Assembly (NCBI GenBank): GCA_016432405.1
Contig: CP066687.1
Coordinates: 515,065 to 579,064 of the forward strand
Length of the DNA stretch: 64,000 nt
Direction: 5' to 3'
Source: Candidatus Giovannonibacteria bacterium
Lineage (GTDB): Bacteria > Patescibacteriota > Minisyncoccia > UBA11713 > 2-01-FULL-45-33
Below are positions 3,202 through 57,900 of the stretch, in pieces. The position numbers and the translations under genes are program-made. Below the pieces are notes generated by a model. It did no database searches. It saw nothing but the letters and a program-made list of their open reading frames with translations, and was not told the DNA's origin. Each line of letters starts with the position of its first letter. The stretch's first letter is position 1.

Positions 3202-6200
3202 TTATAGTATTCTACGCAACCACTCTCCGGTGTATGATTTTTTGTGGGAGGCGATCTCTTTCGGGGCGCCTTCGGCGACCACCTCCCCGCCGTTGCCGCC
3301 GCCGTCCGGACCGAGGTCAATTATCCAGTCGGCGTTTTTTAAGACGTCCAAATTATGTTCAACAACCAAGACGCTGTTGCCTTTATCCACCAGTGCGGAG
3401 AGAATATTTAAAAGTTTTTGGATATCGTCAAAATGGAGGCCAGTTGTCGGCTCGTCTAAAATATAAAGAGTTCGCCCCGTGGCTTTTTTGGAAAGCTCAA
3501 ACGCGAGCTTCACTCTCTGCGCCTCGCCGCCCGAAAGCGTCGTCGCCGGCTGGCCCAGCTTCATGTATCCCAAGCCAACCTCAACGAGAGTTTTCAGGCG
3601 CTGGTCAATTTGCGGAATGTCTTTAAAAAACTTATGCGCCTCTTCTATTGATAAATCCAAAACATCGGCGATATTTTTATTTTGATACAAAATTTCCAGC
3701 GCTTCTTTATTGTACCGCTTGCCGTGGCATTCCTCGCATTCCACGTAAATATCCGGCAAAAAATACATCTCTATTTTTTTAACCCCCTGCCCTTCGCAAA
3801 CCTCGCATCTCCCGCCTTTGACATTGAAGGAGAAGCGTCCCGATTTGTATCCACGGGCGCGCGCCTCAATAGTCCGCGCGTAAATTTCGCGTATAAACGA
3901 AAACACTCCGGTGTAAGTCGCGGGGTTGGAGCGCGGCGTGCGTCCGATGGGTGACTGGTCCACCAACACCGCCTTATCAATATTTTCCAAACCCTCAATT
4001 TTTTTATGCTTGCCCGGCTCTTCTTTTGAGCCGTAAAAATATTTCAAAAGCGCCTTTGCCAAAATGTCGGAGATGAGCGAGGATTTCCCCGACCCCGAAA
4101 CTCCGGAGACGGCGACCAGCTTGCCCAAAGGAATCTTTACGTCAATATTTTTAAGATTGTGCTCGGAAGCGCCTTTGATGGTCAACTTATCCGCACTTGC
4201 CTTGGCGCTAGGTTTTGCAAGGACACGCATATTCGCCTGCTGGCGAATTGCTCTGCTCGCCCCGTCGGTCTGCGCAAGGTCTTGCAAAACCTGCGCCTTC
4301 GGCTCGCTTTTCACTTCTTTTCTGCCAGACAAATATTCCCCAGTCAAAGTTCTCGCGCGTAAAAGTTCTTTATAAGTTCCTTCAAAAATAACTTGGCCGC
4401 CGCGCTTGCCGGCGCCTGGACCCAAATCAATTATCCAATCGGCTTCCTTCATCGTCTCGGCATCGTGCTCCACAACTAATACGGTATTCCCCAAATCGCG
4501 CAAATCTTTCAGCGTTTTAATCAGCCGCGCATGGTCTCTTGCATGGAGCCCGATTGACGGCTCGTCTAAAACGTAAATCACTCCCGTCAAGGCCGAGCCG
4601 ATCTGAGTCGCAAGCCGCACCCTCTGCGCTTCGCCACCTGCCAGCGTCGTGGACTCGCGGTCTATGGTCAGGTAATCCAAACCCACCTCCAACAAAAATT
4701 CCAGCCGCCGCAAAATTTCTCTAAGCAACGGACGCAAAGCGCCACCTCCCCCAACCCCCTCCTTCGTAAGGAGGGGAATAAAAAAATTTCTTGCATCCGA
4801 AATAGTAAGAGCGGAAATCTCGGCAATATTTTTGTCGGCGTAGGTTACGGCCAGCGCTTCCGGCTTAAGCCGCCTGCCCTTGCAGACGGGGCATTGCTCC
4901 ACGCGCATGTATTTTTCTATTTCTTCTCTAGTCCATTCCGATTCCGTTTCTTTCCACCTGCGTTTCAAGTTTTCGATTACTCCTTCGAAACCGCCCGGCT
5001 CCTCGAAACCGGGTTTTGGGACTGCCAAAAAACCCGGTTTCTTCCCGCCGGGCGGTGTTGAGGAGCGAGGCGAATCACCATACAAAATTATTTTCTTTAT
5101 TTTCTCCGGCAATTTCGCGTAAGGCGTGTTTAGAGAAAATCCGTGCCTCTCCGCCAAATCAGATAAAATCCACCAATACCAGGATTGCCGCCCGACTTTG
5201 TGCGAAGCCGTTGCCCATGCCCTGATAGCTCCTTCCGCCAGTGTCAAATTTTTATTTGGGATAACCAAATCCGGCTCAACCTCCAAGGTGCTTCCCAAAC
5301 CGGTGCAATGCGGACAGGCGCCGTAGGGAGAATTGAAAGAAAAAAGGCGCGGTTCAATCTCCGGCAAAGAAACGCCGCAATCCGGGCAGGCAAAGTGCTC
5401 GGAAAAAAGCTGGTCATTTACCCCCACACCAAAATCTTTGGTGTGGGGGTTTATCAATACCAGCCCTTTCCCAATCTTCAGCGCCGTCTCCAAGGACTCG
5501 CGGAGTCGCGGCCTGTCAAGCTCCTTGTCAATGACTAATCTGTCCACCACCACTTCAATATTATGGGCTTGTTTAGGATTCAATCCGCCAGCCGGCGGAT
5601 TTTCCGCTTCGTCCAAGCGCATTATTTCTCCGTCCATCCTCACTCGCAAAAATCCTCCGCGGCGAACCATTTCCAAAATGCTTTTGTGCTCGCCTTTTTT
5701 GCCTCTGACCACGGGCGCGAAAATATCTATCCGCGAGCCGTTCTTTAACCCGCCTGCGCGGGCAGGTTTCAAAATGTGATTTAAAATTTCGTCCGCGCTC
5801 TGCCTGCCTATTTTTTTGCCGCATTTCGGACAGTGCGGCTCACCGGCACGCGCGAATAAAATACGGAGGTAATCGTAAACTTCCGTAATTGTGCCGACGG
5901 TTGAGCGCGGATTTTTTGCCACGCTTTTCTGGTCAATGGCGATGGCCGGCGAAAGGCCGGAGATGGAATCGGCTTCCGGCTTTTCTTTAACGCCCAAAAA
6001 TTGCCGCGCGTAGGAAGAAAGCGACTCCACAAACCGCCTTTCGGCTTCGGCGTAAATAGTGTCAAAAGCCAGAGATGATTTTCCGGAGCCGGAAAGCCCG
6101 GTGATAACCACGAGTTTATTTTTCGGAATATCCAAATCAATATTTTTAAGGTTATGCACCCTCGCTCCCCTAATCCTTATAAAATTTTTGCCGCTCTCTC

Positions 6201-6210
6201 TCGCTTCCAT
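3202..6210 (-). CDS. uvrA: Excinuclease ABC subunit A (UvrA)
   Basis: 1002 aa, N-term [14 protein letters not shown], two ABC ATPase modules ([20 protein letters not shown]), zinc-finger cysteines. Carries two in-frame palindromic insertions (see repeat features). Confidence 0.97.
4745..4780. repeat. GC-rich hairpin mini-element (family 2: CCCCTCCTT-N4-AAGGAGGGG) inserted in-frame in uvrA
   Basis: CCTCCCCCAACCCCCTCCTTCGTAAGGAGGGGA. The same 33-mer occurs as reverse complement in uvrC (7488-7520). Confidence 0.7.
4984..5065. repeat. Nested palindromic mini-element (family 1, KPGF-encoding) inserted in-frame in uvrA
   Basis: Outer IR CCGCCCGGC/GCCGGGCGG and inner IR GAAACCGGGTTTT/AAAACCCGGTTTC. 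Encodes ...[24 protein letters not shown]... within UvrA. Related copies at 33986-34062 and 57282-57382. Confidence 0.75.
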
Positions 6211-6219
6211 AAAGTTTTA

Positions 6220-6270
6220 ATTATAGGACGGATGTCAAGAGATTGCAACTTGCCCCGCAAAGAGTATAAT
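6220..6270. promoter_or_regulatory. Divergent uvrA/uvrC promoter pair sharing one palindromic -35 hexamer
   Basis: TTGCAA (6243-6248) reads the same on both strands. +strand: TTGCAA, 16 nt, TATAAT (6265-6270) for uvrC. -strand: TTGCAA, 17 nt, TATAAT (6220-6225) for uvrA, with the ATG about 10 nt after the -10 (near-leaderless). Confidence 0.5.
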
Positions 6271-6356
6271 AAGCCCAGAAGTACAGTAGCGAGGTAATCT
6301 TTATGGAAGAAAGTCTTTTACGGCTTTCTTTTTTATAGTTATGTTATTATCCATTC

Positions 6357-7727
6357 ATGCTTACCCGAAAGGGCTTTAAAAAAGCGCCGAATGCGCCCGG
6401 GATTTACTTTTTTAGAGATAAGGGCGGGAAGATTTTATATATCGGCAAGGCGGCAAATCTGCGCGCGCGGATCAGATCATATTTCGGAAAAGCTGCTAAG
6501 CCGCCACTTGGCGGCTTAGCCGCCAAGTTAAACTTAAGTTGGGAAGTTTTGGGCTCGGAAACAGAAGCGCTGATTCGCGAAGCGGAGTTAATTAAAAAAC
6601 ACCTGCCTAAATACAATGTTTTGATGCGCGACGACAAGCAGTATTTTTACGTCGGGTTTACAAAAGAAAAATTTCCGAAAATATTTATCACGCATCAACA
6701 AAACCGCGAAGCAAATTATATCGGCCCGTTCACTGAAGGCGGGGCGTTACGCTCCGTCCTCAAAACTCTCCGCCGCGCATTTCCATATTGCACATGCAAA
6801 AAATCCCATCCGCGCCCGTGCCTCAACGCGCGGATTGGGAGATGTTTAGGGTTTTGCTGTTTACCTCCCCATTCCCCTCCTTATCAAGGAGGGGACCAAG
6901 GGGAGGTCTATAAAAATAACATCCGCGCAATCAAAAAAATCCTTTCCGGCAACAACAAATCGCTTGCGTTCACGCTCAAAAAAGAAATGCATAAGCTCTC
7001 CGACGCCAGAAAATACGAAGAGGCCGGCAAAATCCGCGACCAAATCCGCGCGCTGGAAAAAATTTTTGAACACAGGGGAGTAATCAAGCAGGACTTGCCC
7101 ACAGAGTACCAAAAAGCCCTGCGGGCGCTGGAATCAATTTTAGGCGTATCCGGCATAAACCCCCACACCAAAAAGTTTGGTGTGGGGGTAAATAGAATAG
7201 AATCCTACGACATCGCCAATATTCATGGCCGATTTGCCTATGGCTCAATGGCTGTTTTCGCGAACGGCAAAATTCAAAAAAATGCCTATCGCCTGTTTAA
7301 AATTAAAACGGTCAAAGAGTCCAACGATCCCGCGATGCTTAAAGAGGTTTTGGAACGGAGATTAAAGCATCGCGAATGGCCGTATCCTGAAATTATTTTA
7401 GTGGACGGAGGAAAAAGCCAGCTTAGCGCGGCACTAAAAGCAATACCTCCCCTTGCCCCTCCTTATAAAGGAGGGGATAAAAAGAATAAGCTCCCCTCCT
7501 TACGAAGGAGGGGGTTGGGGGAGGTTATAAAATTCATTGCCCTCACCAAAAATAAAAAACATGTCGGCGACCATATTTTTATTTCCGGAAAAGCATCTCC
7601 TATCTCACTTGCCCGCCTCCCCGAACCGCTCAAAAATTTTATTTTAATGCTGGACTCCGAAGCCCATAGATTTGCGATTTCGCATTACAGAAAACTCCAT
7701 CGCAAAAGCTTGACTTTTAAAACCTAG
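6357..7727 (+). CDS. uvrC: Excinuclease ABC subunit C (UvrC), short form lacking C-terminal HhH
   Basis: 456 aa. GIY-YIG N-term (GIYFFRD...LYIGKA), Cys cluster, RNase H-like motifs (LVDGGKSQL, SEAHRFAI). Two in-frame hairpin insertions. Confidence 0.92.
   Translation: MLTRKGFKKAPNAPGIYFFRDKGGKILYIGKAANLRARIRSYFGKAAKPPLGGLAAKLNLSWEVLGSETEALIREAELIKKHLPKYNVLMRDDKQYFYVGFTKEKFPKIFITHQQNREANYIGPFTEGGALRSVLKTLRRAFPYCTCKKSHPRPCLNARIGRCLGFCCLPPHSPPYQGGDQGEVYKNNIRAIKKILSGNNKSLAFTLKKEMHKLSDARKYEEAGKIRDQIRALEKIFEHRGVIKQDLPTEYQKALRALESILGVSGINPHTKKFGVGVNRIESYDIANIHGRFAYGSMAVFANGKIQKNAYRLFKIKTVKESNDPAMLKEVLERRLKHREWPYPEIILVDGGKSQLSAALKAIPPLAPPYKGGDKKNKLPSLRRRGLGEVIKFIALTKNKKHVGDHIFISGKASPISLARLPEPLKNFILMLDSEAHRFAISHYRKLHRKSLTFKT
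6864..6906. repeat. Family 2 hairpin mini-element in-frame in uvrC (copy 1)
   Basis: CCTCCCC-ATT-CCCCTCCTT-ATCA-AGGAGGGG-ACCAA-GGGGAGG, a nested palindrome. Encodes PPHSPPYQGGDQGEV. Confidence 0.7.
7446..7524. repeat. Family 2 hairpin mini-element in-frame in uvrC (copy 2, tandem hairpins)
   Basis: CCTCCCC...CCCCTCCTTATAAAGGAGGGG...CCCCTCCTTACGAAGGAGGGGG...GGGGAGG. The 33-nt core matches the uvrA copy in reverse complement. Confidence 0.7.
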
Positions 7728-13132: not shown

Positions 13133-13822
13133 GTGATACCTGTCTCGACCTTAATCTACATTTTTAACGGCACAATGGCTTTGTGGTATGGGCTTAGAAA
13201 CCTCCGCGCTTACCAACAAACCAAAAATGACTACTCTTTGATGTTTTTCCGGGTAGGACTCGGGGTGGCGATTGCGGAATATTTTTACGGCATTCCGCTT
13301 TTATTCCTTCCTATCAATTCCTATTTGAATGGTTTATCTTATCTTTTAGCCATATTCCCGCTTTTTGTCGGTCTTAATTATGCGCTGCGTTTTATTTTGA
13401 AAGCGTGGGACTATCACAATACCGAGAAAGTGGTTGCAGTTCTAATTCCCTTTGTTGTGTTAATTTTCTTTTTGTTTCATCTGCACGCCGTCCCTATGCC
13501 CCTCTATTTTCTTCTAGGCTTGTTCAGATTTGTCGACTGGCGCGTACTTTATCCTTACGACCTGATTTGGGCCGCGCTGCTTTTCTTGACCACGGTACTT
13601 CCCGGCATTTATTTCCTTGCGGTGAAAGTAGAGACAAAAAAGGCGTTTCTGAAAAAAATTCTGTTTGGGATTGTGTTTGTTCTCGGCGGTTTAGGCGGGA
13701 TTGTGATTGTGGTTTTTTCGGGTTATCCCATATTGCTGGTTTGGGCATTTATAATTCAGTTTATTGGGTTTTCCGCTTTGGGAAGCATTTTCTTGGTTGA
13801 TATTTTTCTGAAAGAAACCTAA
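13133..13822 (+). CDS. Hypothetical integral membrane protein
   Basis: 229 aa, about 6 hydrophobic helices, no recognisable family. Confidence 0.55.
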   Translation: MIPVSTLIYIFNGTMALWYGLRNLRAYQQTKNDYSLMFFRVGLGVAIAEYFYGIPLLFLPINSYLNGLSYLLAIFPLFVGLNYALRFILKAWDYHNTEKVVAVLIPFVVLIFFLFHLHAVPMPLYFLLGLFRFVDWRVLYPYDLIWAALLFLTTVLPGIYFLAVKVETKKAFLKKILFGIVFVLGGLGGIVIVVFSGYPILLVWAFIIQFIGFSALGSIFLVDIFLKET

Positions 13823-14821: not shown

Positions 14822-16048
14822 ATCAGCTAGAATTTTTCTTTTTTCTTCCAGAAGCTCCGAAGTGGACGCCTCAATATTTAAACGGAGCAGGTCTTCGGTG
14901 TTGGACGGGCGCAAATTGAACCACCAGTCGGGATATTCTATCTTGATTCCGTCCGAATATGACGCCTTGCCGTCAGTAAAATGCGCAGCGACTTTGTCTA
15001 TTATTTTTTCCTTATCTTTTATTTTGAAATTTATTTCTTCGGATTTAAAATAGCGCGCCAGCGGCTTGATGAGCTCGCTTAATGGCTTCTTAGTTTCTCT
15101 CAACAAATCCAACACGGCGAGAGCCGCGAAAATCCCAGAATCGGAGTAGAAAAAATCGCGGAAATAATAATGTCCGGAAAGCTCTCCGCCGAAAACCGCG
15201 TTTTCTTTTTTCATCAGCGCCTTAACAAATGAATGCCCCACCCGGCTCTCTACCGCGACTCCGCCGGCCGCCTCTATTTCTTCCCTAACCGCTCTGCTTG
15301 AAGGAATATCGTAGATGATTTTCTCGCCGGGCTTGGCGTATTTTCGCGCCAAAAGCGCCGTAATCATGTCTCCGGGCGCTGCTTTCCCGCTTTCGTCGCG
15401 GAACATCACCCTATCTCCGTCAAAATCAAAAGACTCTCCGGGTATCTTATCCGCCAGCGCAAATTTAATAATATAAGATTTTAAATGCGGGAAGCTCCCT
15501 GCCAGAAATTTGGTATATTCATCTGAAAAATCTTTTTTAACAACACTCCCGCGATTTTCAGAATTTTGGAAAATACCGCGCAGAGAATCATTTTTTATTT
15601 CTTCCATCCCCGAGCCGGCGCCGATAGAAACCGCGGATTTTTTTGAGAGCTTCATGCCATTAAATTCCGGCGGGTTATGCGAAGCAGTAATCATCGCGCC
15701 GCCGTCCGCTTCTGTTTTATTTAAGATGAAATAATGCATCGGCGTTGTCGTCAGCCCTGCGTCAATAATTTCCGCGCCCTCATCCGAAAGCCCGTCCGAG
15801 AAAGCCTCTTTAAGCGCTGGTGATGATTCGCGCGCGTCGGAGCTCACAACAATTTCCAACTTCTCATCTCTTACTTCTAACCTCAAATACCGCGCAAAAG
15901 CGCGGGCTATTTTATACGCCGCGTCTTCATTGATTTCTTCCGGATAAATCCCCCGAATATCATACGCCCTAAAAATCCCCTCGGGGGGTAGTGAAGCGCG
16001 AGCTCTACTACCCCCCTCGCTCCACGACTTTTGCGCAATTTTGTGCAT
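14807..16048 (-). CDS. Phosphomannomutase / phosphoglucomutase
   Basis: 413 aa. Active-site loop TASHNPPEFNGMK, N-terminal IFRAYDIRG. The N-terminus carries an in-frame palindrome insertion. Confidence 0.9.
   Translation of the reverse strand: MHKIAQKSWSEGGSRARASLPPEGIFRAYDIRGIYPEEINEDAAYKIARAFARYLRLEVRDEKLEIVVSSDARESSPALKEAFSDGLSDEGAEIIDAGLTTTPMHYFILNKTEADGGAMITASHNPPEFNGMKLSKKSAVSIGAGSGMEEIKNDSLRGIFQNSENRGSVVKKDFSDEYTKFLAGSFPHLKSYIIKFALADKIPGESFDFDGDRVMFRDESGKAAPGDMITALLARKYAKPGEKIIYDIPSSRAVREEIEAAGGVAVESRVGHSFVKALMKKENAVFGGELSGHYYFRDFFYSDSGIFAALAVLDLLRETKKPLSELIKPLARYFKSEEINFKIKDKEKIIDKVAAHFTDGKASYSDGIKIEYPDWWFNLRPSNTEDLLRLNIEASTSELLEEKRKILADLIMK
15983..16016. repeat. In-frame GC-rich inverted repeat in the N-terminus of the phosphomannomutase gene
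   Basis: GGGGGGTAGTG-aagcgcgagctct-ACTACCCCCC, encoding SWSEGGSRARASLPPEG ahead of the conserved IFRAYDIRG. Confidence 0.6.
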
Positions 16049-16084
16049 TACCTTATTCTATAATTTAGGCCTATTTTTAGACAC

Positions 16085-16113
16085 TTGACACAGCATTTGT
16101 TTGGGTGTATAAT
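16085..16113 (+). promoter_or_regulatory. Consensus sigma70 promoter
   Basis: TTGACA (16085-16090), 17 nt spacer, TATAAT (16108-16113). Perfect -35/-10 consensus. About 75 nt structured leader before the SD AAGGGGGTG. Confidence 0.65.
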
Positions 16114-16193
16114 AGGAGCAAGATGGCGTGACGCCGTCTGGCCTAAGGGAATAGGCCCTTAAGCCAACTTCTTTGACAAGAAGGGGGTGCTAT

Positions 16194-16708: not shown

Positions 16709-16757
16709 TTTACGACGAACGCGCGTTAAAGCCACGGTAAAACCGTAGTGCAAATTT

Positions 16758-16784
16758 CACCGCTATAGCTGTCAAACTTGCACT
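16758..16784 (+). promoter_or_regulatory. Operator-like repeat, copy 1 (GCTATAGC palindrome core)
   Basis: CACCGCTATAGCTGTCAAACTTGCACT upstream of the PaaX-like gene. Near-identical copy at 17414-17440 upstream of ychF. Confidence 0.45.
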
Positions 16785-17380: not shown

Positions 17381-17413
17381 CGATTATTGTTTACGAAATC
17401 CAATTACAAGTTT

Positions 17414-17440
17414 CAGCGCTATAGCTGTCAGATTTGCACT
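17414..17440 (+). promoter_or_regulatory. Operator-like repeat, copy 2
   Basis: CAGCGCTATAGCTGTCAGATTTGCACT, 24 of 27 identical to copy 1. Sits 35 nt upstream of the ychF ATG. Confidence 0.45.
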
Positions 17441-43154: not shown

Positions 43155-43208
43155 AATCTATACTACGCAAGTTGGACGATAGGCTAGAATACGTAGTATG
43201 CGTATTAA
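43131..43208. repeat. 78-bp direct repeat, copy 1 (contains internal 8-bp IR ATACTACG/CGTAGTAT)
   Basis: AAAAAACGCAAAAACGCGCTTTAAAATCTATACTACGCAAGTTGGACGATAGGCTAGAATACGTAGTATGCGTATTAA. Copy 2 at 43776-43853 has 4 mismatches. Confidence 0.8.
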
Positions 43209-43253
43209 AAATAGAGAGGTGTAAAAAAAATAAAAAAGCAGTATCATTACCCA

Positions 43254-43799
43254 ATGGACATCATATCGCACGGGCTGTGGACGGGGGCGATTGCCAAAGC
43301 CGCCAACGAAAAAATAAAAAAGCCGCTCAATTTCTGGGCGGCGGTTTGGTGGGGCGTTTCCCCGGATTTGTTCGCTTTTACTATCCCGTTTTTGGGGCTT
43401 TTGTGGAATTTTACTTTCCGCGGCGTGAATCTCGCGGACATCCCAGGACCGTCCGCAACCGAGCCGCCGTCCTCCGGCACTTTATGGATTTTCCAGCTCG
43501 CGACCGTACTTTATAACATCAGCCACAGCGCCATTATTTTTTTGATTGTTTTCGGACTGGTCTGGCTGGTTCTGAAGCGCCCGGTTTGGGAGATGGGGGG
43601 ATGGATTTTCCACGTTTTTCTGGACGTGCTGACCCATTCTTTTCGTTTCTTTCCGACACCGGTCTTCTGGCCGCTTTTCGGCTGGAAATTTAACGGCATT
43701 TCCTGGGCCAATCCTCAGTTTCTTGCCATAAATTATGCTGCCCTGATTTTGCTTTATCTCTGGTTTTTTGTAATTAAAAAACGCAAAAACGCGCTTTAA
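43254..43799 (+). CDS. Membrane-bound metal-dependent hydrolase (DUF457/YdjM-like)
   Basis: 181 aa. MDIISHGLWTGAI N-terminus and His-rich TM segments typical of the family. The C-terminal codons lie inside repeat copy 2. Confidence 0.7.
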   Translation: MDIISHGLWTGAIAKAANEKIKKPLNFWAAVWWGVSPDLFAFTIPFLGLLWNFTFRGVNLADIPGPSATEPPSSGTLWIFQLATVLYNISHSAIIFLIVFGLVWLVLKRPVWEMGGWIFHVFLDVLTHSFRFFPTPVFWPLFGWKFNGISWANPQFLAINYAALILLYLWFFVIKKRKNAL

Positions 43800-43853
43800 A
43801 ATCTATACTACGCAAATTGGACGATAGGTTAAAATACGTAGTATGCGTACTAA
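43776..43853. repeat. 78-bp direct repeat, copy 2
   Basis: See copy 1. Overlaps the 3' end of the hydrolase gene. Confidence 0.8.
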
Positions 43854-47852: not shown

Positions 47853-49700
47853 TCATCTCTTGATTGCTTTGAGATAAACCTCCGCGGGGATTTGGTAATC
47901 AGCGCGCTCTTTCAGACGTTTTTTGCCTTCTTTTTGCTTTTTCCAAAGCTTCATTTTCCGGCTTCTGTCGCCCCCGTAAAGATGCCCCGTGACATTTTTG
48001 GAAAGCGCCGGAAGCGAACGCGAAGCCAAAATCCTCCCGCCGGCGCGCGCCTGTATTTTGAGTGCGAAAACCGCCCGCGGCAGAATTTTGCGGAGTTTTT
48101 CCACCGCCTCTCTGGCTTCCTGCTCCGCGCGCCGGCGGGGAATTATTTTTGAAAACGCCGGCTGGATTTCCTCGGCTATAAGCACGTCCAGCCGCAGCAA
48201 ATCCGCCGGCCGCGTATCCAAAAATTCGTAATTGAGTGAAGCGTATCCGGCAGAGACGCTTTTTAATTCGTCAAAAAAATCGCGCATCAGCTCCCGAAGC
48301 GGCATTTGGGCGCCCAGCTTAACTCTGGACTCCGAAAATTTATGCGTGTCTCCGACTCTCGCCTCGTGCGCTTCCAGCAGTTTCAAGACCTTCGGCAGGC
48401 GCTCCGGCGGAGTAAGTATTTCAATCTTGAGCCACGGCTCCAAAACTTCCAAAATCTCCTGCCCGCCTGCCTGCCGGCTAGGCAGGTCCGGAAATTTGCT
48501 CGGCGCGTATATTTCCATCGTCCCCCGCCTTGTTTTTACGGCGTATTTTACCGTCGGCGAAGCGGCGATCGTTTTTATTTTAAAATCGCGCGCAAGCTTT
48601 TCCACGACAATCTCCAGATGCAGCTGCCCCAAAAATCCGCACCTAAAGCCCCGTCCCAACCCCGCCGCGGCGGGGCCGCCGGATTCCTCCTCAAAAAAAA
48701 GCGCGCTGTCCAGAAGCTTCAGCCGCTCAAGCGCCTTTTTCAAATCCTCAAAGGCGTTCTGATCCTCCGGATACAAACTTGAAAAAACCACCGGCCTTGG
48801 CTCGCGGTAACCCGGCAAAGCATTAAGCGAGCTGCCATCTTCCAATATTGTGTCACCAACGCGCACCGCTCTCGCTTCTTTTATCCCAGTGACGACGTAG
48901 CCAATCTCGCCCGCGGACAGGATTTCCATAGGCGAAAGCTCCGGCCTGAACACCCCGACCTCGCTTGCGGCAAATTTAATATTGGAATGAACCAACTTTA
49001 ATCTACTGCCTTTCCCAATCTCTCCGCCAAAAACCCGCACATGCGCGACTATCCCTTTATGCAAAGAGTATTCAAAATCAAAAATTAATGCCCGTGTTCC
49101 GCCGCCCGGGAAAACACTCGGTGTTTGAAGCCCGCCAACACCGAGTGTTGAGGAGGGCGGCGGAATTTTTTCAACAACTTTCTCAAGCAATTTTTCCACC
49201 CCCTCGCCGGTTTTCGCGGAAAGTTCCAGAATCTCCCCGGCGGACTCACCCAAAAGATTTTTGATTTCTTCTTTTGTCTCCGCGATTCTTGCCTGCGGCA
49301 GGTCAATTTTATTTACCGCCGGAATTATTTTCAAATTAAGCGATTTCGCCAGCTCCACGTTGGAGAGCGTCTGCGCCTCCACTCCCTGGGTCGCGTCCAC
49401 AAGCAAAACCGCGCCCTCCGCGGCGGCCAGCGCCCTAGAGACCTCGTAGTTAAAATCAATATGCCCGGGCGTGTCAATTAAATTCAAAATATACGGCTTA
49501 TGGCTTACGGCATATAGCATTCTAACCGGCTGCATCTTGATTGTTATCCCCCGCTCGCGCTCAAGCGGATGCATATCCAAAAATTGCGCGCGCATTTTGC
49601 GGGCTTCAACTGTCTTGGTAATCTCCAGCATCCTGTCGGCCAAGGTGGATTTTCCGTGGTCAATATGCGCGATTATGCAGAAGTTCCTGATATTCGGCAT
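47853..49700 (-). CDS. lepA: Elongation factor 4 (LepA)
   Basis: 615 aa. N-term NIRNFCIIAHIDHGKSTLADR, LepA-specific C-terminal domain. Contains an in-frame palindromic insertion. Confidence 0.95.
   Translation of the reverse strand: MPNIRNFCIIAHIDHGKSTLADRMLEITKTVEARKMRAQFLDMHPLERERGITIKMQPVRMLYAVSHKPYILNLIDTPGHIDFNYEVSRALAAAEGAVLLVDATQGVEAQTLSNVELAKSLNLKIIPAVNKIDLPQARIAETKEEIKNLLGESAGEILELSAKTGEGVEKLLEKVVEKIPPPSSTLGVGGLQTPSVFPGGGTRALIFDFEYSLHKGIVAHVRVFGGEIGKGSRLKLVHSNIKFAASEVGVFRPELSPMEILSAGEIGYVVTGIKEARAVRVGDTILEDGSSLNALPGYREPRPVVFSSLYPEDQNAFEDLKKALERLKLLDSALFFEEESGGPAAAGLGRGFRCGFLGQLHLEIVVEKLARDFKIKTIAASPTVKYAVKTRRGTMEIYAPSKFPDLPSRQAGGQEILEVLEPWLKIEILTPPERLPKVLKLLEAHEARVGDTHKFSESRVKLGAQMPLRELMRDFFDELKSVSAGYASLNYEFLDTRPADLLRLDVLIAEEIQPAFSKIIPRRRAEQEAREAVEKLRKILPRAVFALKIQARAGGRILASRSLPALSKNVTGHLYGGDRSRKMKLWKKQKEGKKRLKERADYQIPAEVYLKAIKR
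49101..49161. repeat. In-frame nested palindrome in lepA
   Basis: GCCGCCCGGG...AACACTCGGTGTT-tgaagcccgcc-AACACCGAGTGTT...GGGCGGCGG. Encodes STLGVGGLQTPSVFPGGGTRA in domain II of EF4. Confidence 0.65.
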
Positions 49701-49781: not shown

Positions 49782-50342
49782 TTAAAGCGGCGCTTTAGAC
49801 AATGTCGGCCCCGGACGCTCGTAAACTTTCTCGAGTCTCCGTCTTATCTCCGCAATCCGAGAGTCCTTAAACCACGACCTTGTAGCTTTTAGATCTGCGA
49901 TCGCTTTCCCGACAATCTCCCGGTATTCGATAAGCAACAGCCCAATGTCGTTATCGTCGACCTGCCTTAAGCAAAAAAATTCAAAACTCTTGAAAACGAT
50001 TTTTTGGAGTTGCTCGCTAAGGATAACGGCGATCCGGAAATCATCGCAATCTATATACACCTCGTTAAAATCCCGTACCGTCCGATAAAGAACGGACTGA
50101 CCGAATTGGTCAGAGATGTATGGGGAAATTCTATCAGCTACCACTCGCGGCTCTAAGCCACCTTTCCATTGCACTCCAGCTCGATGCATATATCCTCCAT
50201 TGCCGTTTTTTGACCTAAGCAGGCAAACGGCCGCCGTTATTCTTCCAATTTCTTGGAATACAGCTAGGCATAAAAGACCAAGCATTCTAGAACCCATAAT
50301 ACACCCAAAACAATATTTTGTCAAGTGCCTGTCGTGGCTCAA
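49782..50342 (-). CDS. Hypothetical protein
   Basis: 186 aa, 4-nt overlap with the murJ stop, no family recognised. Confidence 0.45.
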   Translation of the reverse strand: MSHDRHLTKYCFGCIMGSRMLGLLCLAVFQEIGRITAAVCLLRSKNGNGGYMHRAGVQWKGGLEPRVVADRISPYISDQFGQSVLYRTVRDFNEVYIDCDDFRIAVILSEQLQKIVFKSFEFFCLRQVDDNDIGLLLIEYREIVGKAIADLKATRSWFKDSRIAEIRRRLEKVYERPGPTLSKAPL

Positions 50343-52030: not shown

Positions 52031-54339
52031 CGCCCTTTCACTGGCGGCTCGCTTCTTTTCTCCGGAGCGGGGCCTGCTATGCCGGCGAGCGCAGCTTTTT
52101 TGGCGCGTAGGTTGGACAAAATCTGCTTAACCTCGCCGTTGTCCGGGTTGAGCGCCAGAATTTTTTCAAATTCTGAAACCGCCTCCGCCCTCCTCCCGCC
52201 GCGGTCGTAAATCAGCCCCAAAAAGTACCGGGCGTTGGAATAATTCGCGTTAATTTCAACCGCGCGCCCGAAAACTATCTCCGCGTCGCTTAAGCGATTG
52301 GCTCGGTAATACAAAAGCCCGAGCTGAAAAAGCGTTCCGATATCGTTGGGCGCCAAAAGCGCCGCCGCCTCTCCTCTTTTTATGGCCTCCGCGGCCTGGC
52401 CTTCCGCGTCGTAAACCTGCGCCAAAAGGAAATGGCCTTCAACATAGTCGGGTTTTAAAGAAACCGCCTTCAGCAAATTCTCTTCGGCTTTTTTCAAAGA
52501 GTCGCGATTGTTACGCATAGCGGCGTCGCTAAGATAGACCACGGCTTTGTCTCTCCAAAGAAGCGGATTTGAGGGCGCGCGCTTCAGCGCCTCGTCGTAT
52601 TGCGCCTGGGCCGCCTCCATTCCGCCGGCGGCGCCCAACTGGACCAAAAAGGAGTAAATCTGCCCAAGCGCGCGGTAATTCAAAAAGTCCTGCGGCTCCG
52701 CCTTTTCGGCGGCTTGCGCCGCCGAAACCGCGCGGTCAAGAAAATCTTTAAAGCGCGACCCAAGAATGTCCGGGGGCGTTGCCCTGTCCTGCAGCAAAAG
52801 CTGGCCCTTAGACATATAGACCTGCGAGAGCGTGCGGAGGTAAAGATCATTGGCGCCGTCGGTTTGCGCCGCAATCAATATTTTTCTCTCCGCTTCGTCC
52901 AAATTTCCGGCGTTTATCGCCTCCAGCCCCTTGGCGTAAGCAAGCTGGCCGACATAGCGGACCGAAACCAAGTAAAGCCCTAATGCGCCCAGGATTATAA
53001 AAAAGACGACAACAAGCGCCGAAATAAATCCTCTCGGCCCTTCTTCTTTAACCAAAGAAAATTCGTAAATTTTAAACGCCCCGGAGATGCGCAGCGCCGC
53101 CAAAAGAAGCCCCATGGCAAAGAATCCCAAGGCCGCCAAAACATACCCCGCAGAGTAAAACATAAACATCAAAATCGCCAAGGAAAAAAGCAGGAACGCC
53201 GCGAAAACCAAGGTCTCCGCGCGCGAATCATGCGCGGAAGCAAGCGCCTTCAAACCCAGATACCAAAGCCAGCCAAAAAACGCGAGCAGCAAAGCCCATC
53301 CCAAAACGCCCGTCTCTCCAAGCGCGCTCAAAATATAAGAGGACCCGAGAGTAAAGCGCAGCCCCCAAAACAAAGTGTTATTGACTTCGGCCGGCTTGTA
53401 TTTATCCCAAAGGTAGCCGAAGGACGCCGGGCCGGTTCCAAAAACGGTGTTTTCTTTAAGCGCTTTCCCCGCAACCTGCAAAGTGGCGCTGTGGGAAACT
53501 CCGACTTCCAAGGGCGCCGGGAAAGCAATTGAGGAAGCGATGAGCGCCGTAAATAAAAAAGCAAAAAGCGCGACCAAAAGAAGCGCCAAAGGAAACCCGA
53601 CTCCGGCGAGCGAAGTATTTTTGCGCCAGATGCCGTAGCTCAAAAGCAAAATCGCAAAAAATCCGATAATGCCCCAAAGCACCGGGAAATTAACCACCAG
53701 TACCAAAAGCAAAGAAAGTAAAAACAGCGCCGCCATAACCCACCTCGCCGCGCCGGACGAAACAGATAAAAAAGGATAAAGCAGCATAAGAAAAAACGCC
53801 GCCGTAAATCCAACGCTGTTCCATGAGCCAACGGGATTAAAAGCGCGCGCCGCGAAAAGACCGCCTAAGGATTGGCCGAGCCCGAAAACGGAAAATATCC
53901 ATACCATTGCCAAAAAGACAGTGAGCCCCAAGCCCAGAGCGACCATGAGCCGCGAGAAATGAGCCGGCTCGGAAAAAAGCGTCATTATCATAAAACTCAT
54001 CAAAGAAAAAGTAAGCAGCGCCAAAAAACTGGAGGGCTCGGCGGCAATTCCCCAAAGCGAAGCGCCCGAGCGGGAAATAACCGCCGAAGCCAAAACGGAA
54101 AGCAAAAACGCGCCCCATATTATAAAAACATGATGGTACGGCAGAGAAACGCTGCCCGCTCTTATGGAATGCGCGAGGTATAAAACGAAAGACAAAAACA
54201 CCAAAACCGAGACCATGAGCAGTTTGTTGAATTCAACCGGAGCTATGGTTACGGGCAAAAACCATACCGGCAGTAAAAAAGCGAGCGCCAAGAGGCACCA
54301 CTCTGCCGCTTTGTGTAGAGAATCGCTTGATATAGTCAT
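52027..54339 (-). CDS. O-antigen ligase-like (Wzy_C) membrane protein with C-terminal TPR repeats
   Basis: True start is most likely the ATG at 54339 (MTISSDSLHKAAEW...). The track's longer N-terminal extension (to 54600) overlaps the RNase P RNA and is spurious. Multiple TM helices, then TPR repeats (SDAAMRNNRDSLKKAEENLLKAV...). Confidence 0.8.
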   Translation of the reverse strand: MTISSDSLHKAAEWCLLALAFLLPVWFLPVTIAPVEFNKLLMVSVLVFLSFVLYLAHSIRAGSVSLPYHHVFIIWGAFLLSVLASAVISRSGASLWGIAAEPSSFLALLTFSLMSFMIMTLFSEPAHFSRLMVALGLGLTVFLAMVWIFSVFGLGQSLGGLFAARAFNPVGSWNSVGFTAAFFLMLLYPFLSVSSGAARWVMAALFLLSLLLVLVVNFPVLWGIIGFFAILLLSYGIWRKNTSLAGVGFPLALLLVALFAFLFTALIASSIAFPAPLEVGVSHSATLQVAGKALKENTVFGTGPASFGYLWDKYKPAEVNNTLFWGLRFTLGSSYILSALGETGVLGWALLLAFFGWLWYLGLKALASAHDSRAETLVFAAFLLFSLAILMFMFYSAGYVLAALGFFAMGLLLAALRISGAFKIYEFSLVKEEGPRGFISALVVVFFIILGALGLYLVSVRYVGQLAYAKGLEAINAGNLDEAERKILIAAQTDGANDLYLRTLSQVYMSKGQLLLQDRATPPDILGSRFKDFLDRAVSAAQAAEKAEPQDFLNYRALGQIYSFLVQLGAAGGMEAAQAQYDEALKRAPSNPLLWRDKAVVYLSDAAMRNNRDSLKKAEENLLKAVSLKPDYVEGHFLLAQVYDAEGQAAEAIKRGEAAALLAPNDIGTLFQLGLLYYRANRLSDAEIVFGRAVEINANYSNARYFLGLIYDRGGRRAEAVSEFEKILALNPDNGEVKQILSNLRAKKAALAGIAGPAPEKRSEPPVKGR

Positions 54340-54341: not shown

Positions 54342-54378
54342 AGAAGATTATAAAAATAACCCAGCCCCGACGCAAGGT
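54342..54378 (-). terminator. Rho-independent terminator of rnpB
   Basis: Minus strand reads CCCAGCCCCGAC-cttgc-GTCGGGGCTGGG followed by TTATTTTTAT. Confidence 0.7.
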
Positions 54379-54381
54379 CGG

Positions 54382-54882
54382 GGCTGGGGATTTGGATTCT
54401 CCGCTCATAAGCCGAGTTCTGTTTAAATAGCCATCTGTCTGGTCCCGCGATTGCTCTGCGGGATCTAGCGTCCGACTACCGAGGTTAACTCGACGTCGGA
54501 CTTGCACCGGGCCCCGACGTAAAGCCGGGGTCCCGACTTCGCTATCAAAAATTTTAATAGTGCGTCGGGACAAGTGTTTTTCACCGCGCGCTGTCACCAA
54601 CGCGCGCTGTGAGCTTTTACCTCACCTCTTTTCACCCTTGCGCTATCAACGCTTCCGGCTTTAGACCGAAAATGATGACGTCCGCGGTATTGTCTCTGTG
54701 ACACTCTCTCGTCCCGCCGTTGGCGGGAGGTGGCCGTTAGCCACTGCCTCTGCCAAAGTTGCCCGAAGCGCAGCGAGGCCGCAACTTTGAGCATCCCGAC
54801 TTTACGTCGGGATTACCTTAGCGGTGCTCGGACTTTCCTCCCTTCCCAAAGCTTGCGCATTGTGGCGGGCGGCTATCCGGCG
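54382..54882 (-). ncRNA. rnpB: RNase P RNA, bacterial type A (M1 RNA)
   Basis: Minus strand contains GGAGGAAAGTCCGAGC (P4 5' strand/CR-I), AGGGTGAAAAGAGGTGAGGTAAAAGCTCAC (CR-II/III), ACAGAACTCGGCTTA (CR-V, P4 3' strand), and P1 pairing GATTCTTCGC/GCGGAGAATC. Consensus promoter upstream and terminator downstream. Length about 500 nt suggests lineage-specific insertions. Confidence 0.8.
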
Positions 54883-54886
54883 AAGA

Positions 54887-54914
54887 ATCTTCCTACATTA
54901 TAGCAGCGTCCCAA
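54887..54914 (-). promoter_or_regulatory. rnpB promoter
   Basis: Minus strand reads TTGCAA (54909-54914), 16 nt, TATAAT (54887-54892). The transcription start coincides with the P1 5' strand. Confidence 0.65.
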
Positions 54915-54928: not shown

Positions 54929-57900
54929 CTAAAAAGCGTCTGCCGGGGACTTGTCGGTTGTGTTTCCGCTGAAAGTCGCGCCAGTCGCCTGAATCGTTGA
55001 GTTGGAAGAAGAAACCCCCAGGAAGTTATCGGAAAACGAAACTGTGTTCAAAACCACTCCGGCGTTGGCGGCAACCAGCGCCGTTGAATTGCTCGCGGGC
55101 GAGGCGTGGTTATTAAATTCAAAATTGGTGAGCGTTGAGGTCGCGTGGTCGTAAAGCCGCATTCCGGCCTTGTAATTATTCTCAATCCGCCCGTCCGACA
55201 AACTGACGCTCCCGCCAAAAACTCCGATGCCCGCTATGGCGTTAGGGTTGCCTCCCGCGCCATATCCGCCGTAGCGCAAAGTGAACCCGCCGCCATACAT
55301 ATATCCGCCGGAATTTACCACAATGCCGTACCACTCGCCGGGCGCCGTGTCCGCCAAAGAAGTGAAAACGATACTGCTTTTGCTCGCGCCTTCAAGTTTT
55401 AACGCGCCGTTTACGGTGAGCCGCGAAGAGCTGTCCTCGCCGGCAAACCGCGCGCCCGCTTCCAAAACCAAACCCGCTCCGGCGGAAATTTCGGCATTTG
55501 ACGAAGAAATTGTTAGGTAAGCCAGAGAATTAGAAGCGAGCGTCGTCGTCCCGCCCGCTGCAGAAATCGTCCCCAAAAGCGCTATGCCGTTTTTGCCGTT
55601 GCCCGCGCCGGAATTCCCAGAAAAAGTGCTGGAGCCGTTTGATGAATACAAAGCGTAAGAAATATTATTGTTAAAAATATTATTCGCGTAAGACGCGGCC
55701 GCCCCTTCCGCCTTTGCTCCAAAATAATTTTCCGAAAACGTGTTTCCGGAAACGGTCGGCGCTCCGCCCACGACGTAAAACCCGACGTTATCCGCCGTCG
55801 TCGTGCCCACAGAGAAGGTATTGTTCTGAATTGTGGAGTTAGAAGTCGTCAATCTTGCTCCCGCCGAAAAAGAATTTTCAAAAATTGAATTGGAAATGGT
55901 TATGGAGTTGTCAATAACGCTCAAAAGCGCTCTGCGTTCCTGCGGGATATTGCTGGCAAACCCGCCGCCGTATTTAAAACGGGTATGGCTTACGCTGGAA
56001 TTCTGGCTGCTGGAGGTAATCCGCACGTTTCTCCAGCTGCCCGCCGCGGGAGAGCCCGACAAAGCGGTAAATAAAATATTGTTTGCCGCAGTGCCGTCTG
56101 ATTTTAGAGTGCCGTCCACAATCAAATCAGCCGAGTCGCCCATCTTCACCGTAACTCCCGGCTCAATCGTCAAAGTTTTGCCGCTCGCGATTGTCAGAGT
56201 TTCGTTGTCTTTTATAATGTAGGTTCCGAAAGATTGTTTTAACGTTTTGTCGGAAGATAAAGTCGCGCCCTGCGAAATTAAATAATGAAGTGAGTTGCGC
56301 GCCCGCGGAGTCGCAGTAAGCGCCGCGCCCGCCGAATCCAAGCCGTTTTTCACAACGCCGTTTGATGTCCCCCAGTTCCCCGTGTCCGTCCCCACGGCTT
56401 CCATATCAATTCTTTCCATTGATGAATAAGTCGGCGAGGCAAGTCCTCCGCACCAAGCGTTGGAGCAAAGAACAGTTTGGTCAATCGTCGTTGATGCGCG
56501 GGATAAAACCAAAGTTTCTCCGCCGTTCCCAAGACCGGAGCCCGCACCCGAGCCGGAAAAAGGCGCAGTGAGGTCGGCGGTCACGTCGCTTACGGTGTCA
56601 TTATCCGTCCTTTCTATTAAATAATATCCTCCGGCGGAAATTGTTCCCGAAAGATTAATATACGGAACGCCGTCGCCCGCGTATAAAACCCAATTCGCGA
56701 TACTCACGCTTTTTGAACTTCTATTATAAAGCTCAATCCACTCGTCGGCGCTGTTCGCAGAAGTTCCCGCCCAGGCGATTTCATTTATGACAACAGGGCG
56801 AGTGAAAAACACGACCGTCTTAGTCGTTTGCGCGCTCTCGTTGCCGGCATTGTCCACCGCTTTTGCTTTGAAAATATAAGTGGAATCGTCCGCGGGCAAA
56901 GAATAAATTGTGGAAGTCGCCGTGGTGCTCGCAAAATTAAATCCGTCGCAACTTACACCTCCCACTTCACACCTCACATCGTAATGATTCAGGTCGCCCG
57001 CGGCGCTGGACCAGGAAACAGTGGCGGTTGAGCTTGCCACAAGGCATTCGCCGGCAACGGAAGCCAGCCCGGGGCATTCCGAAACGTCCAAAGAAATATC
57101 CGGAGCGGTTGTGTCGGAAGCCGGAGTTTCCGCAGGCGGCGTCGGCGTGCCTCCGCCAAAGCCGGGAGAACCGCCTCCGCCCGCCGCCTGCAACTGCAAA
57201 AAAGGCGGTAAATCCTCATTCGGGGACTTAGTTTCCAAGTTGGCTGCTTCACTTGGTTGTTGGACAACCAAATTGGTTACGCCGCCCGGCGAGAGAACAC
57301 TGCCCGACTCCTCGAAACCTGGTTTTGAGACTTCCAAAAAACCAGGTTTCTTCCCGTCGGGCAGTTTTAAGAAGTCGGGCGGCTCACTTGGCGGTGAAAC
57401 CGCCAAGTGGGGCTCAAATGCGCTTTGAGGAATCTCTTCAACCAACGGCTTCGGCTCTTCTTTATTATTTAAACCGACCGCGCCGCTAACTTGCGACGGA
57501 AGCAAACTCGCCACCCTGTCAAAAATCGTTTTATTTTTCGCCAACAATCTTTTGTTCTCTCTCTCCTCCTCAACCGCCTCAAAAAACAATCTCACCACCC
57601 CAACCCCATGCAAAACCGCTTGTTTGGAAAGATGAGACCAGTAGTCATTCATTACATAAGTATTATCGTCAAATTTAGTTATAAATTTTGAGTTATCTCC
57701 TTTCAGAGTCTCTAATTTAACCAAACGCAATTTCTTGCTATCAAGTTCTCCGTATGCAAAGTAATATTGAACCCCATCAATATGTTCTACACTGATACTC
57801 TTGATAATTGGATTAAAATACTCTTTTGATTTTTCTGGCGTTGTATCCTTGCTAAAAAAATTATTATTAGAATAAGTCGCCATTGAATCAAAATATTCCC

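Follow-up and report, generated by a model that had tools for sequence, protein, structure and literature searches.

In-frame GC-rich palindromes, probably selfish mobile DNA, in core genes of a Candidatus Giovannonibacteria genome

Palindromes within the genes of the window

We analyzed a 64-kb stretch of DNA (64,000 nucleotides of contig CP066687.1, assembly GCA_016432405.1; hereafter the window) from Candidatus Giovannonibacteria, a lineage of the candidate phyla radiation (CPR, Patescibacteria), in which short GC-rich palindromes lie inside protein-coding genes. The window has a G+C content of about 48% and is about 92% coding. A census counts 23 hairpins in it whose stem is perfect over at least 10 bp and whose loop does not exceed 15 nt, versus 1.2 +/- 1.2 in 30 block-wise dinucleotide shuffles of the same sequence. 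About 20 GC-rich palindromes, 29-115 nt in size, are located within open reading frames (ORFs), and every one of them preserves the frame, i.e., each lies in a long ORF, has a net length divisible by 3 and brings no stop codon into the frame of its host. The hosts are UvrA, UvrC, phosphomannomutase (PMM) and LepA and, as identified by Pfam, FtsK, two TPR proteins and a giant protein with an LTD domain. At this coding density a location inside ORFs is to be expected, and it is hence the tolerance of insertions that has to be explained.

An earlier reading of the sequence (the original prediction) had described such elements as two families plus singletons. All palindromes quoted there were found at their coordinates, in frame and free of stop codons, and there are more of them than it had listed. 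The set comprises at least five families, several of them unrelated, and is heterogeneous; a 29-bp family (family 3) and family 4 had been missed, and the earlier list omitted 5416-5454, 7155-7193, 6492-6527, 57383-57411, 5582-5601, 5746-5763 and 4209-4334, among others. Folded as single-stranded DNA, the elements listed below have z values of -4.9 to -7.3, with the exception of 4744-4777 (-3.0) and a hairpin in the UvrA linker (-2.4). About 10 of the roughly 20 in-frame palindromes fall into 4.4 kb of uvrA (3202-6210, minus strand) and uvrC (uvrA-uvrC span 3202-7727), and the UvrA orthologs of other Giovannonibacteria are colonized to an equal degree. For rpoB and rpoC (24054-30979, 7 kb) the hairpin census, with its minimum stem of 10 bp, came out empty. 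When the window was scanned against Rfam, only RNase P RNA and tRNAs came up, and no element was matched.

We compared the window with its syntenic relative L002 (GCA_001780675.1) and with L003 (GCA_001778635.1). These relatives have DNA gaps of 18, 9, 33, 66 and 75 nt in uvrA, of 33 and 75 nt in uvrC and of 36 nt in the PMM gene, and L002 carries palindromic insertions of its own elsewhere (48 nt in GPI, 21 nt in PMM, 24 nt in uvrC). We counted at least 10 element gains, losses or replacements over 16 syntenic kb, in genomes whose compared proteins are 82-90% identical. Thirty UvrA orthologs (67-88% identity) range from 917 to 1028 aa, and their differences are pooled in about eight hot spots at which different species hold different palindrome-type peptides. 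The ortholog P0005/L003, for example, has a Family 1 peptide (24 aa) at another site than the window and a lepA-type peptide at the window's Family 1 site. LepA behaves likewise: among about 40 aligned orthologs, the baseline ones read IP(P/S)P, 6-8 residues and RALIFD without any element, and in those from Giovannonibacteria that same loop is filled by palindrome peptides of at least eight different kinds.

In solved UvrA structures the element-coded segments correspond to gaps or unalignable loops. We also used an AlphaFold2 model of UvrA (mean predicted local distance difference test score, pLDDT, of 72; shallow alignment). Its pLDDT falls below 50 at residues 258-263, 381-405 and 639-672, which are three element sites; the segments encoded by Family 1, the 29-bp family and the linker hairpin (626-668) are all below 50, and for the Family 2 segment (residues 478-489) the model shows coil, at a pLDDT of about 59. 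In the alignments of UvrA, of LepA and of the L002 DNA, the insertions, which the original prediction had proposed to check against orthologs and structures, are lineage-specific, frame-preserving and placed at variable loops. Since the same families occupy differing sites and genes in related genomes, we regard them as mobile.

We therefore consider it likely that several unrelated families of selfish, non-autonomous mobile DNA have colonized a gene-dense CPR genome in the form of these palindromes. Insertion would take place at the DNA level, with most copies landing in genes given a coding share above 90%. The copies that survive would be those that keep the frame, bring no stop codon and sit in permissive surface loops or linkers, and they would be translated as short Pro/Gly-rich, probably disordered segments, as in the palindromic elements of Rickettsia and in intragenic repetitive extragenic palindromic (REP) sequences. 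Different families probably have different mobilizers.

As the source genomes are metagenome-assembled, we considered whether the elements are artefacts of assembly or binning. A Logan contig (L187, SRR12113426) matches window positions 1-4773 at 100% and stops inside a Family 2 hairpin; assemblers struggle at repeats, which suggests that this assembly broke at the Family 2 copy, and palindromes of this kind may generally fragment short-read CPR assemblies. Two Family 1 contigs binned as Saccharibacteria also point to possible errors of binning. However, the window sequence is identical in independent assemblies, 11 contigs from NCBI and Logan encode one and the same LepA protein, element included, many independent assemblies contain related copies, orthologous copies are found in several genomes from different groups, more than 110 contexts of the 29-bp family stem from many metagenomes, and reading frames are preserved without exception. 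Because of the LepA and Logan identities and the related copies across assemblies, the probability of an artefact is negligible.

The Family 1 superfamily

Family 1 had been predicted in uvrA, in a TPR gene and in the giant protein, and was recovered in all three (4980-5065, 33986-34062 and 57281-57383, respectively). The uvrA element (4980-5078, +) is a two-tier hairpin that matches our covariance model at 4984-5062(+) with 93 bits, folds with -31.8 kcal/mol (z -6.8) and encodes a 34-aa peptide. On its 5066-5078 side it retains what is left of an older lepA-type element (SPRSST); the site is a 66-nt gap in L002, and L003 has a complete lepA-type element there. The copy in the small TPR protein (33986-34064, -; 94 bits; z -6.5; peptide ETPPDSSKPGFETSQKPGFFPSGGFE) lies in the linker after the N-terminal helix and has an orthologous copy in L015. 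In the LTD-domain giant protein (57281-57383, +; match 57293-57371(+), 95 bits; peptide EPPDFLKLPDGKKPGFLEVSKPGFEESGSVLSPGG) the copy is nested in an outer stem GCCGCCCGGC...GTCGGGCGGC, which gives a three-tier fold of -34.5 kcal/mol (z -7.3). The window copies are 82-93% alike and form two- or three-tier hairpins with z values of -6.5 to -7.3.

The hairpin in LepA after the IPPP motif (49092-49170, -; 75 bits; z -7.2; peptide IPPPSSTLGVGGLQTPSVFPGGGT) had been taken for a singleton. The hairpin (49097-49165) is real, but the element aligns to Family 1 without gaps and has the same architecture. Its left arm consists of the native PPP codons and its right arm of their complement. Family 1 and the lepA element hence form one superfamily of 69-nt two-tier hairpins. 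Their outer stem has 9 bp and is followed by a 5x5 internal loop (TCCTC/TTCCC); the inner stem of 13 bp closes an 11-nt loop. Thirty oriented Family 1 copies align gaplessly and still do so when seven lepA-type copies are added. In this alignment 97.5% of pair cells hold standard pairs, there are almost no G-U pairs, and 118 double-sided changes face 4 one-sided ones, a ratio that shuffled and slid controls come nowhere near. The lepA-type outer stems differ in every copy with complementarity kept, and the internal-loop and apical-loop sequences of Family 1, which are asymmetric, are conserved across about 30 copies in unrelated genes.

The scan with a covariance model that had been proposed located exactly four superfamily members in the window. 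They score 75-95 bits on one strand and 32-40 on the other (Family 1 copies 93-95 vs 35-40), and the element therefore has a defined orientation. In a search for divergent members, 220 kb of related loci yielded one new copy and the window only a weak match at 21981-22034. Scanning one genome per GTDB species for the inner hairpin gave 56 loci. The full Family 1 architecture occurs only in four Giovannonibacteria genomes, with about 30 copies in unrelated genes (the MFHO genome has about 20), and on the two contigs binned as Saccharibacteria; on one of the latter the neighbouring gene is 80% identical to a Giovannonibacteria contig, and these contigs may be mis-binned. We rejected the matches to the inner stem outside CPR, mainly from cyanobacteria, as unrelated hairpins since the outer architecture is absent. 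Other such contigs outside CPR or from Peribacteria were single ones from Planctomycetales, Anaerolineae, Omnitrophota, Syntrophomonadaceae and Peribacteria. Separately, Microcoleus, Oscillatoria and others have their own dispersed AGAAACCCGGTTTTT...AAAAACCGGGTTTCT hairpins, several per locus (e.g., L010, L012, L038; loci among L008-L059), which contain the inner-stem motif of Family 1 and lack its outer architecture.

All 31 Family 1 copies examined for their reading frame lie in long ORFs, and their orientation to the host gene is nearly balanced (13 vs 16). Units are nested in many copies: the GAAAC|GTTTC stem of one unit harbours a second unit at its centre, and the two may point in the same or in opposite directions. 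At one orthologous site L026 and L030 carry the element in opposite orientations, and at two independent orthologous sites (UvrA site E; L036 vs L007) Family 1 and Family 2 have replaced each other. Nesting, replacement and flips argue for a preference for existing palindromes, and the hot spots probably reflect this preference together with permissive protein positions. The superfamily would accordingly be REPIN-like (a REP doublet forming a hairpin), maintained as DNA palindromes, inserting without target duplication and preferentially entering or replacing existing palindromes, which would produce nesting, orientation flips and hot spots. Our leading guess for its mobilizer is a hairpin-recognizing enzyme such as a REP-associated tyrosine transposase (RAYT) or IS200-type HUH transposase.

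These data also bear on whether the hairpins are host-selected structures, e.g., mRNA stabilizers, signals for translational pausing at domain boundaries, binding sites for proteins or signals for DNA uptake. The sites do lie at domain boundaries and linkers, the stems are strongly maintained, and the internal and apical loops of Family 1 are conserved, all as a host function would have it. Strict Watson-Crick covariation in both orientations, however, points to a constraint on the DNA palindrome and not on RNA alone, and the near absence of G-U pairs fits poorly with selection on RNA only. Moreover, both orientations to the host gene are in use, close relatives differ in presence and swap families at the same site, the 29-bp family has target duplications and cassette partners, and no Rfam family was matched. 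We hence regard a host function as distinctly unlikely.

Slightly more weight, although still little, goes to a local origin de novo, in which template switching or hairpin "correction" during replication would create palindromes that never move between sites. Such a process would account for the many single-copy palindromes of unique sequence (PMM, uvrA 5582 and 5746), for lepA-type outer stems that are all different yet complementary, for the predominance of changes in both arms and for the complement of native PPP codons in LepA. It leaves unexplained the identical 34-39-nt copies in different genes, the asymmetric loops that about 30 Family 1 copies have kept alike in unrelated genes and the at least 112 contexts of the 29-bp family with target duplications. 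Alongside mobility, de novo formation may contribute to stem maintenance and to the single-copy palindromes.

Although three to six frames are open in Family 1 copies, the KPGF frame is the one read in 29 of the 31, which we take to show selection on the encoded peptide and thereby as indirect evidence of translation. The elements might instead be untranslated, being cut from the mRNA or bypassed by the ribosome as in mitochondrial byp elements and the T4 gene 60 hop; their stable hairpins resemble bypass or processing signals. Yet every measured insertion is a multiple of 3 and stop-free in the host frame, and Family 1 keeps to a single frame. A sequence that is skipped would have no need of either constraint, and bypass or excision is therefore very unlikely. 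Frame conservation rather suggests that the peptides are translated, and they would be neutral.

Terminal repeats, nuclease cassettes and REP-like families

Two copies of the 29-bp family lie in the window. The uvrA copy (5416-5454; z -6.3; 13-aa peptide) is a palindrome CCCCCACACCAAA-NNN-TTTGGTGTGGGGG flanked by a 4-bp direct repeat, TTTA on the plus strand, and occupies the site at UvrA residues 258-263. The uvrC copy (7155-7193; peptide INPHTKKFGVGVN) has the flanks TAAA/TAAA and is 95% complementary to 5416-5454. They share ACCCCCACACCAAA-NNN-TTTGGTGTGGGGGT and the peptide INPHTKxFGVGVN. Both are net 33-nt insertions, and each empty site in L002, that in uvrC reading GCAATAAATAG, has a single TAAA. 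The terminal repeats are perfect, 13-14 bp long and separated by a 3-nt spacer, and the element is stop-free in all six frames.

A metagenome scan found at least 120 loci of this family in at least 112 unique contexts, on contigs of 30-66% G+C. Among the matches listed, an exact 4-nt direct repeat directly outside the palindrome is present in 60 of 112 contexts (500 permutation trials: mean 20, maximum 29), and at least three of four positions match in 83 of 112; inverted, i.e., palindromic, flanks are depleted and a direct repeat occurs at no other offset. The repeats are mostly TAAA, and TGAA, TTGA, TATA, TTAA, TGTA, CAGG, CTTG and CCCG also occur. The flank repeats are hence target-site duplications that show a sequence preference. 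Among the same matches, the frames used in ORFs of at least 100 aa are PHTKxFGVGV (46), PPHQxFWCGG (24) and TPTPKxLVWG (13).

In L073, 14-bp repeats of this family bound a 288-bp element filled exactly by one 84-aa ORF, a bare GIY-YIG domain (Pfam PF01541) whose nearest solved structures are UPF0213 1zg2 and 1ywl, members of a group described as bacterial SLX1-like proteins (PMC1564403). A phmmer search detected nine GIY-YIG ORFs in the fetched loci, of which six have inverted-repeat flanks: in four the ends are of family 3 type or close to it, in L002 they are a CCCCGCACC variant, and in L080 they have another sequence. The Giovannonibacteria loci with a GIY-YIG ORF are L011 and L002, where the cassette adjoins uvrA. 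When homolog loci were fetched blind, all six GIY-YIG ORFs were bounded by family 3 repeats in elements of 285-339 bp; at least 10 loci overall have the ORF bounded exactly by 14-19-bp family 3 terminal repeats. The protein family has more than 1,100 members at E<=1e-10 with 75-90% identity, with Patescibacteria, Shapirobacteria, Elusimicrobia and Endomicrobiia as named sources; that proteins from different phyla are so alike suggests horizontal spread. Family 3 ends are also found on elements of intermediate size (100-170 bp), two of them in one Giovannonibacteria genome. The sizes run from 29 bp through 100-170 bp to about 290 bp in the elements with an ORF, a series typical of transposon families that have given rise to deletion derivatives. 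The 29-bp family would thus be a terminal-repeat-only derivative of the approximately 290-bp GIY-YIG cassettes, creating a 4-bp target duplication that is most often TAAA.

Two of the GIY-YIG loci have features of their own. The L002 cassette (13277-13616) lies between uvrA and groES, with ends ACCCCGCACCTTTTG matched at 15/15 positions and flanks TTGA/TTGA; at this position the window has an unrelated 186-aa ORF (2510-3070) with no Pfam match. The GIY-YIG ORF in L011 (1105-1359) is without the usual terminal repeats and seems to interrupt a tRNA gene, since 23 nt from the 3' part of the tRNA (CCCGCAAGGGTATCGGAGGTTCG) are duplicated on either side of the ORF.

The Family 2 unit is asymmetric, with an outer arm ACCTCCCC, 3 nt and a hairpin CCCCTCCTT-NNN-AAGGAGGGG; its loop is thus 3 nt long and not 4 as had been stated. 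The uvrA copy of the original prediction stands, whereas uvrC has three copies instead of two (6862-6908, 7444-7477 and 7492-7525), and the stretch described as an identical 33-mer between uvrA and uvrC is 34 nt long. It belongs to the single end in uvrA (4744-4777; z -3.0; 12-aa peptide), which is 100% complementary to 7492-7525; L002 has a Family 1 remnant at this site and L003 a nested double Family 1. A collapsed arm-hairpin-arm form lies in uvrC at 6862-6908 (-18.4 kcal/mol, z -5.4; peptide LPPHSPPYQGGDQGEV), where L002 is unalignable. A double-end form at 7444-7525 in uvrC (z -6.0; 28-aa peptide) has inverted structured ends of about 33 nt and a 16-nt spacer; L002 has a 75-nt gap there and a family 4 palindrome instead. 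At L159 9320-9780 a 126-aa DUF559 endonuclease ORF (PF04480) lies between two inverted Family 2-type units, and L003 2770-2843 and window 7444-7525 have L159-like two ends with only 13-16 nt between them. It would fit this arrangement that Family 2 units are the structured terminal repeats of a DUF559 nuclease cassette. No target duplication was seen for Family 2.

Family 4 is REP-like. Its uvrC copy (6492-6527; z -4.9; peptide AAKPPLGGLAAK) is a three-arm form of CACTTGGCGG-N5-CCGCCAAGTG and is common to L002; the second copy adjoins the Family 1 element of the giant protein (57383-57411; z -7.0; peptide PHLAVSPPSE) and is 88% complementary to 6504-6528. No target duplication was found for family 4. 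In the Giovannonibacteria locus L030, REPs of the sequence GCACTTGGAAGCCGGACTTCCAAGTGC stand on both sides of a 214-aa Y1_Tnp/RAYT-like gene (5089-5733). They share with family 4 a 7-bp stem CACTTGG..CCAAGTG and the geometry of a 10-bp stem with a 5-nt loop. Family 4 thus resembles, and may be, a REP of the kind that flanks the RAYT gene of this one related Giovannonibacteria genome. A second RAYT gene (L120 8279-8977) has a different surrounding REP, whose peptides DVGRP/GRPTS recur in the LepA orthologs P0127-P0132. As a side observation, the RAYT-like genes of L030 and L120 each contain their own REP in frame, at a similar protein position (DQLGSSASKQ vs PADSDVGRPNP) and a second time towards the C-terminal part.

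We infer from these associations which enzyme would move which family, and several points weigh against the picture of mobile elements so drawn. For Family 1 we found neither a target duplication nor a conserved flanking tetranucleotide, outermost stems included, nor a half-site or a longer coding version, and queries with GIY-YIG, DUF559 and RAYT/Y1 proteins (phmmer) matched no ORF within the 64-kb window. The link of Family 2 to DUF559 comes from one locus (L159), and that of family 4 to RAYT from one Giovannonibacteria locus and the stem similarity. In the GIY-YIG cassettes the flanking 4-mers are mostly 3/4 matched, and the duplication is less clear than in the miniatures; the nuclease could be a homing gene that invaded a palindrome and not a transposase. 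Translation of the peptides is read from frame conservation only, and the KPGF frame bias could reflect positive selection for the encoded peptide instead of mere tolerance. Beyond this, a scan past the window edge gave only a short Logan contig with no cassette on it, and neither Family 1 nor the 29-bp family was matched when viral contigs were scanned with phages in mind as vectors.

The remaining palindromes are the following. A long nested hairpin in the linker between the UvrA halves (4209-4334; arms GCGCAGGTTTTGCAAGAC / GTCCTTGCAAAACCTAGCGC, inner ATTCGCC-AGCA-GGCGAAT) is weak with z -2.4; L002 has a 75-nt gap there with one arm kept, P0010 has a similar peptide, and the model has pLDDT <50 at 639-672. 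Also in uvrA are a small palindrome AATCCGCCAGCCGGCGGATT with an 8-bp stem (5582-5601; peptide NPPAGGL; net +9 nt vs L002 and L003) and an 18-nt GC-rich palindrome (5746-5763; peptide ARAGGL), which is present in P0004 too, corresponds to an 18-nt gap in L002 and is replaced by a different palindrome in L003. The hairpin GGGGGGTAGT-N14-ACTACCCCCC at the PMM N-terminus (15983-16016; 36-nt insertion vs L002; z -5.2; peptide EGGSRARASLPP) is indeed single-copy, as had been claimed. The palindrome TTTTTTCCGCCAAAGGCGGAAAAAA is in frame in the FtsK linker (23389-23413; IFSAFGGKK). It is near-identical to 41236-41260 just upstream of the start of a DEAD-box helicase gene, and the common TTTTTTCCGCC(A/G)(A/G)AGGCGGAAAAAA might represent another small family or a terminator motif that works in both directions. 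A GC-rich hairpin lies in the large TPR protein at 52694-52737. A widespread palindrome with no copy in the window, CCTGCCTGCCGGCAGGCAGG (peptides LPAGRQ / GLPAGRH), is in frame in many CPR proteins, i.e., in the L002 PMM (gap at window 14951-14992), in L080 3512-3913, L094, L122 and L185, in the LepA orthologs P0133 and P0158 and in UvrA P0006.

Outside the reading frames, the RNase P RNA (54392-54888, minus strand; RF00010, 111.6 bits) has 497 nt against 367 model positions and carries three large additional GC-rich hairpin segments, e.g., around 54793-54813, which may be palindromic insertions into a structural RNA; a further GC-rich hairpin (54360-54388) lies directly 3' of it. The window also contains an 82-nt direct repeat (43127-43208 and 43772-43853; 95% identical, 645 nt apart) around short ORFs (43172-43799), a terminator-like hairpin AATCCCCTAAATC...GATTTTGGGG in two intergenic copies (31657-31702, 60026-60071), a 45-nt intergenic repeat in two copies (16740-16784, 17396-17440) and a promoter-like TTGACA...TATAAT 52-mer in inverted intergenic copies (16079-16130, 50279-50330).

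Significance and comparison with known systems

CPR genomes are regarded as streamlined, yet core genes of nucleotide excision repair, translation and cell division here bear a heavy, fast-turnover load of selfish palindromes. These may account for part of the unexplained length variation of UvrA (912-1028 aa) and LepA in the lineage, and as non-homologous insertions the segments should be masked in annotation and phylogenetics. The tiny nuclease genes, GIY-YIG and DUF559, that are tied to palindrome ends offer a testable route to the question of how elements like those of Rickettsia or REPs move, and the cassettes could reveal a new minimal class of DNA transposon. As a speculation that we put forward tentatively, the 84-aa GIY-YIG protein, and by analogy DUF559, might mobilize its approximately 290-bp element with terminal inverted repeats and target-site duplications; it would then be a new type of transposase in the smallest autonomous DNA transposon, the 29-bp form would be the smallest MITE (miniature inverted-repeat transposable element), and together with REPIN-like hairpins these elements would keep rewriting the surface loops of core proteins in CPR.

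The original prediction had drawn a parallel to the Rickettsia palindromic elements (RPEs; Ogata et al. 2000 Science, as cited in PMC10969869 and PMC3733652). As they are described in the citing articles, RPEs likewise are repeated palindromic DNA in frame in many unrelated, often essential genes, encode peptides in fold-compatible loops, form several families per genome in a reduced host genome, and have a main family without an identified transposase. On the other hand, phylum and sequences differ, the RPEs being compared by description, and sizes are 29-115 nt here versus about 100-150 nt. The window elements also nest, flip and replace each other at hot spots extensively, and some of their families have visible candidate mobilizer genes and target duplications. 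The parallel thus holds as a functional analogy, and membership in the RPE families does not follow from it.

The finding of such elements in repair and translation genes had been called striking. These hosts are indeed present, but intragenic REPs were already described in uvrA, uvrB, UvrD and recBCD of Opitutus, Thioalkalivibrio, Xanthomonas and R. conorii (Di Nocera et al. 2013, PMC3733652), and because of this precedent we regard the clustering in repair genes as a recurrence and not a first case. New here are the CPR setting and the nuclease cassettes. REPs and REPINs are also short GC-rich imperfect palindromes, often arranged as inverted dimers in long hairpins (PMC3733652; Bertels and Rainey, PMC3337134), and they too are without target duplication; L030 has a RAYT-like gene with its own flanking REPs. 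In contrast to REPs, which are predominantly extragenic with a known intragenic minority (PMC3733652), the window families are nearly all intragenic. The GTAG/CGTC tetranucleotide at the foot of the stem was absent from the flanks of Family 1, Family 2, the 29-bp family and family 4. Furthermore, Family 1 has no RAYT gene linked to it, and its monomer is not a stem-loop in itself.

Mobile GC-rich palindromes of organelles include the yeast mitochondrial GC clusters and the fungal double-hairpin elements; we know of no nuclease cassettes bearing the ends of organellar palindromes. Together with those of sponges (RHE, PMC2800124) and nematomorphs (coding palindromes, PMC6649704), they are similar in being small GC-rich hairpins that have entered coding and rRNA regions of compact genomes, sometimes in frame, nested and at hot spots. 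They differ in their organellar setting and in mechanisms that are different or not established. Our full-text literature searches brought up reports neither on in-frame palindromes in CPR nor on GIY-YIG or DUF559 cassettes with terminal repeats at their ends.

With homing GIY-YIG genes and UPF0213 proteins the cassettes share a minimal GIY-YIG domain near 1zg2 and 1ywl (Dunin-Horkawicz et al. 2006, PMC1564403), and the ORF lies exactly central in a palindrome that could be its own recognition site. However, homing addresses one conserved site and involves neither inverted repeats nor target duplication, whereas here the repeats are scattered over more than 100 unrelated sites, with duplications; UPF0213 proteins, moreover, are regarded as vertically inherited repair proteins (PMC1564403).

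The 29-bp family can be compared with MITEs such as Correia, ERIC and the Coxiella QMITE (reviewed in PMC10969869), for which in-frame fusions are occasionally known (PMC10969869). The family has perfect terminal inverted repeats, a 4-bp target duplication, many dispersed copies and the size series described above, from 29 bp up to the ORF-bearing form of about 290 bp. With its 13-bp repeats and 3-nt spacer, the 29-bp form is far below the usual 70-300 bp, and the sole ORF of the full-length form encodes an 84-aa GIY-YIG nuclease and not a DDE, HUH, serine or tyrosine transposase. Judged by these features, the 29-bp family would conform to the definition of a MITE in all respects except the gene of its full-length partner, which encodes a GIY-YIG nuclease and no known transposase.

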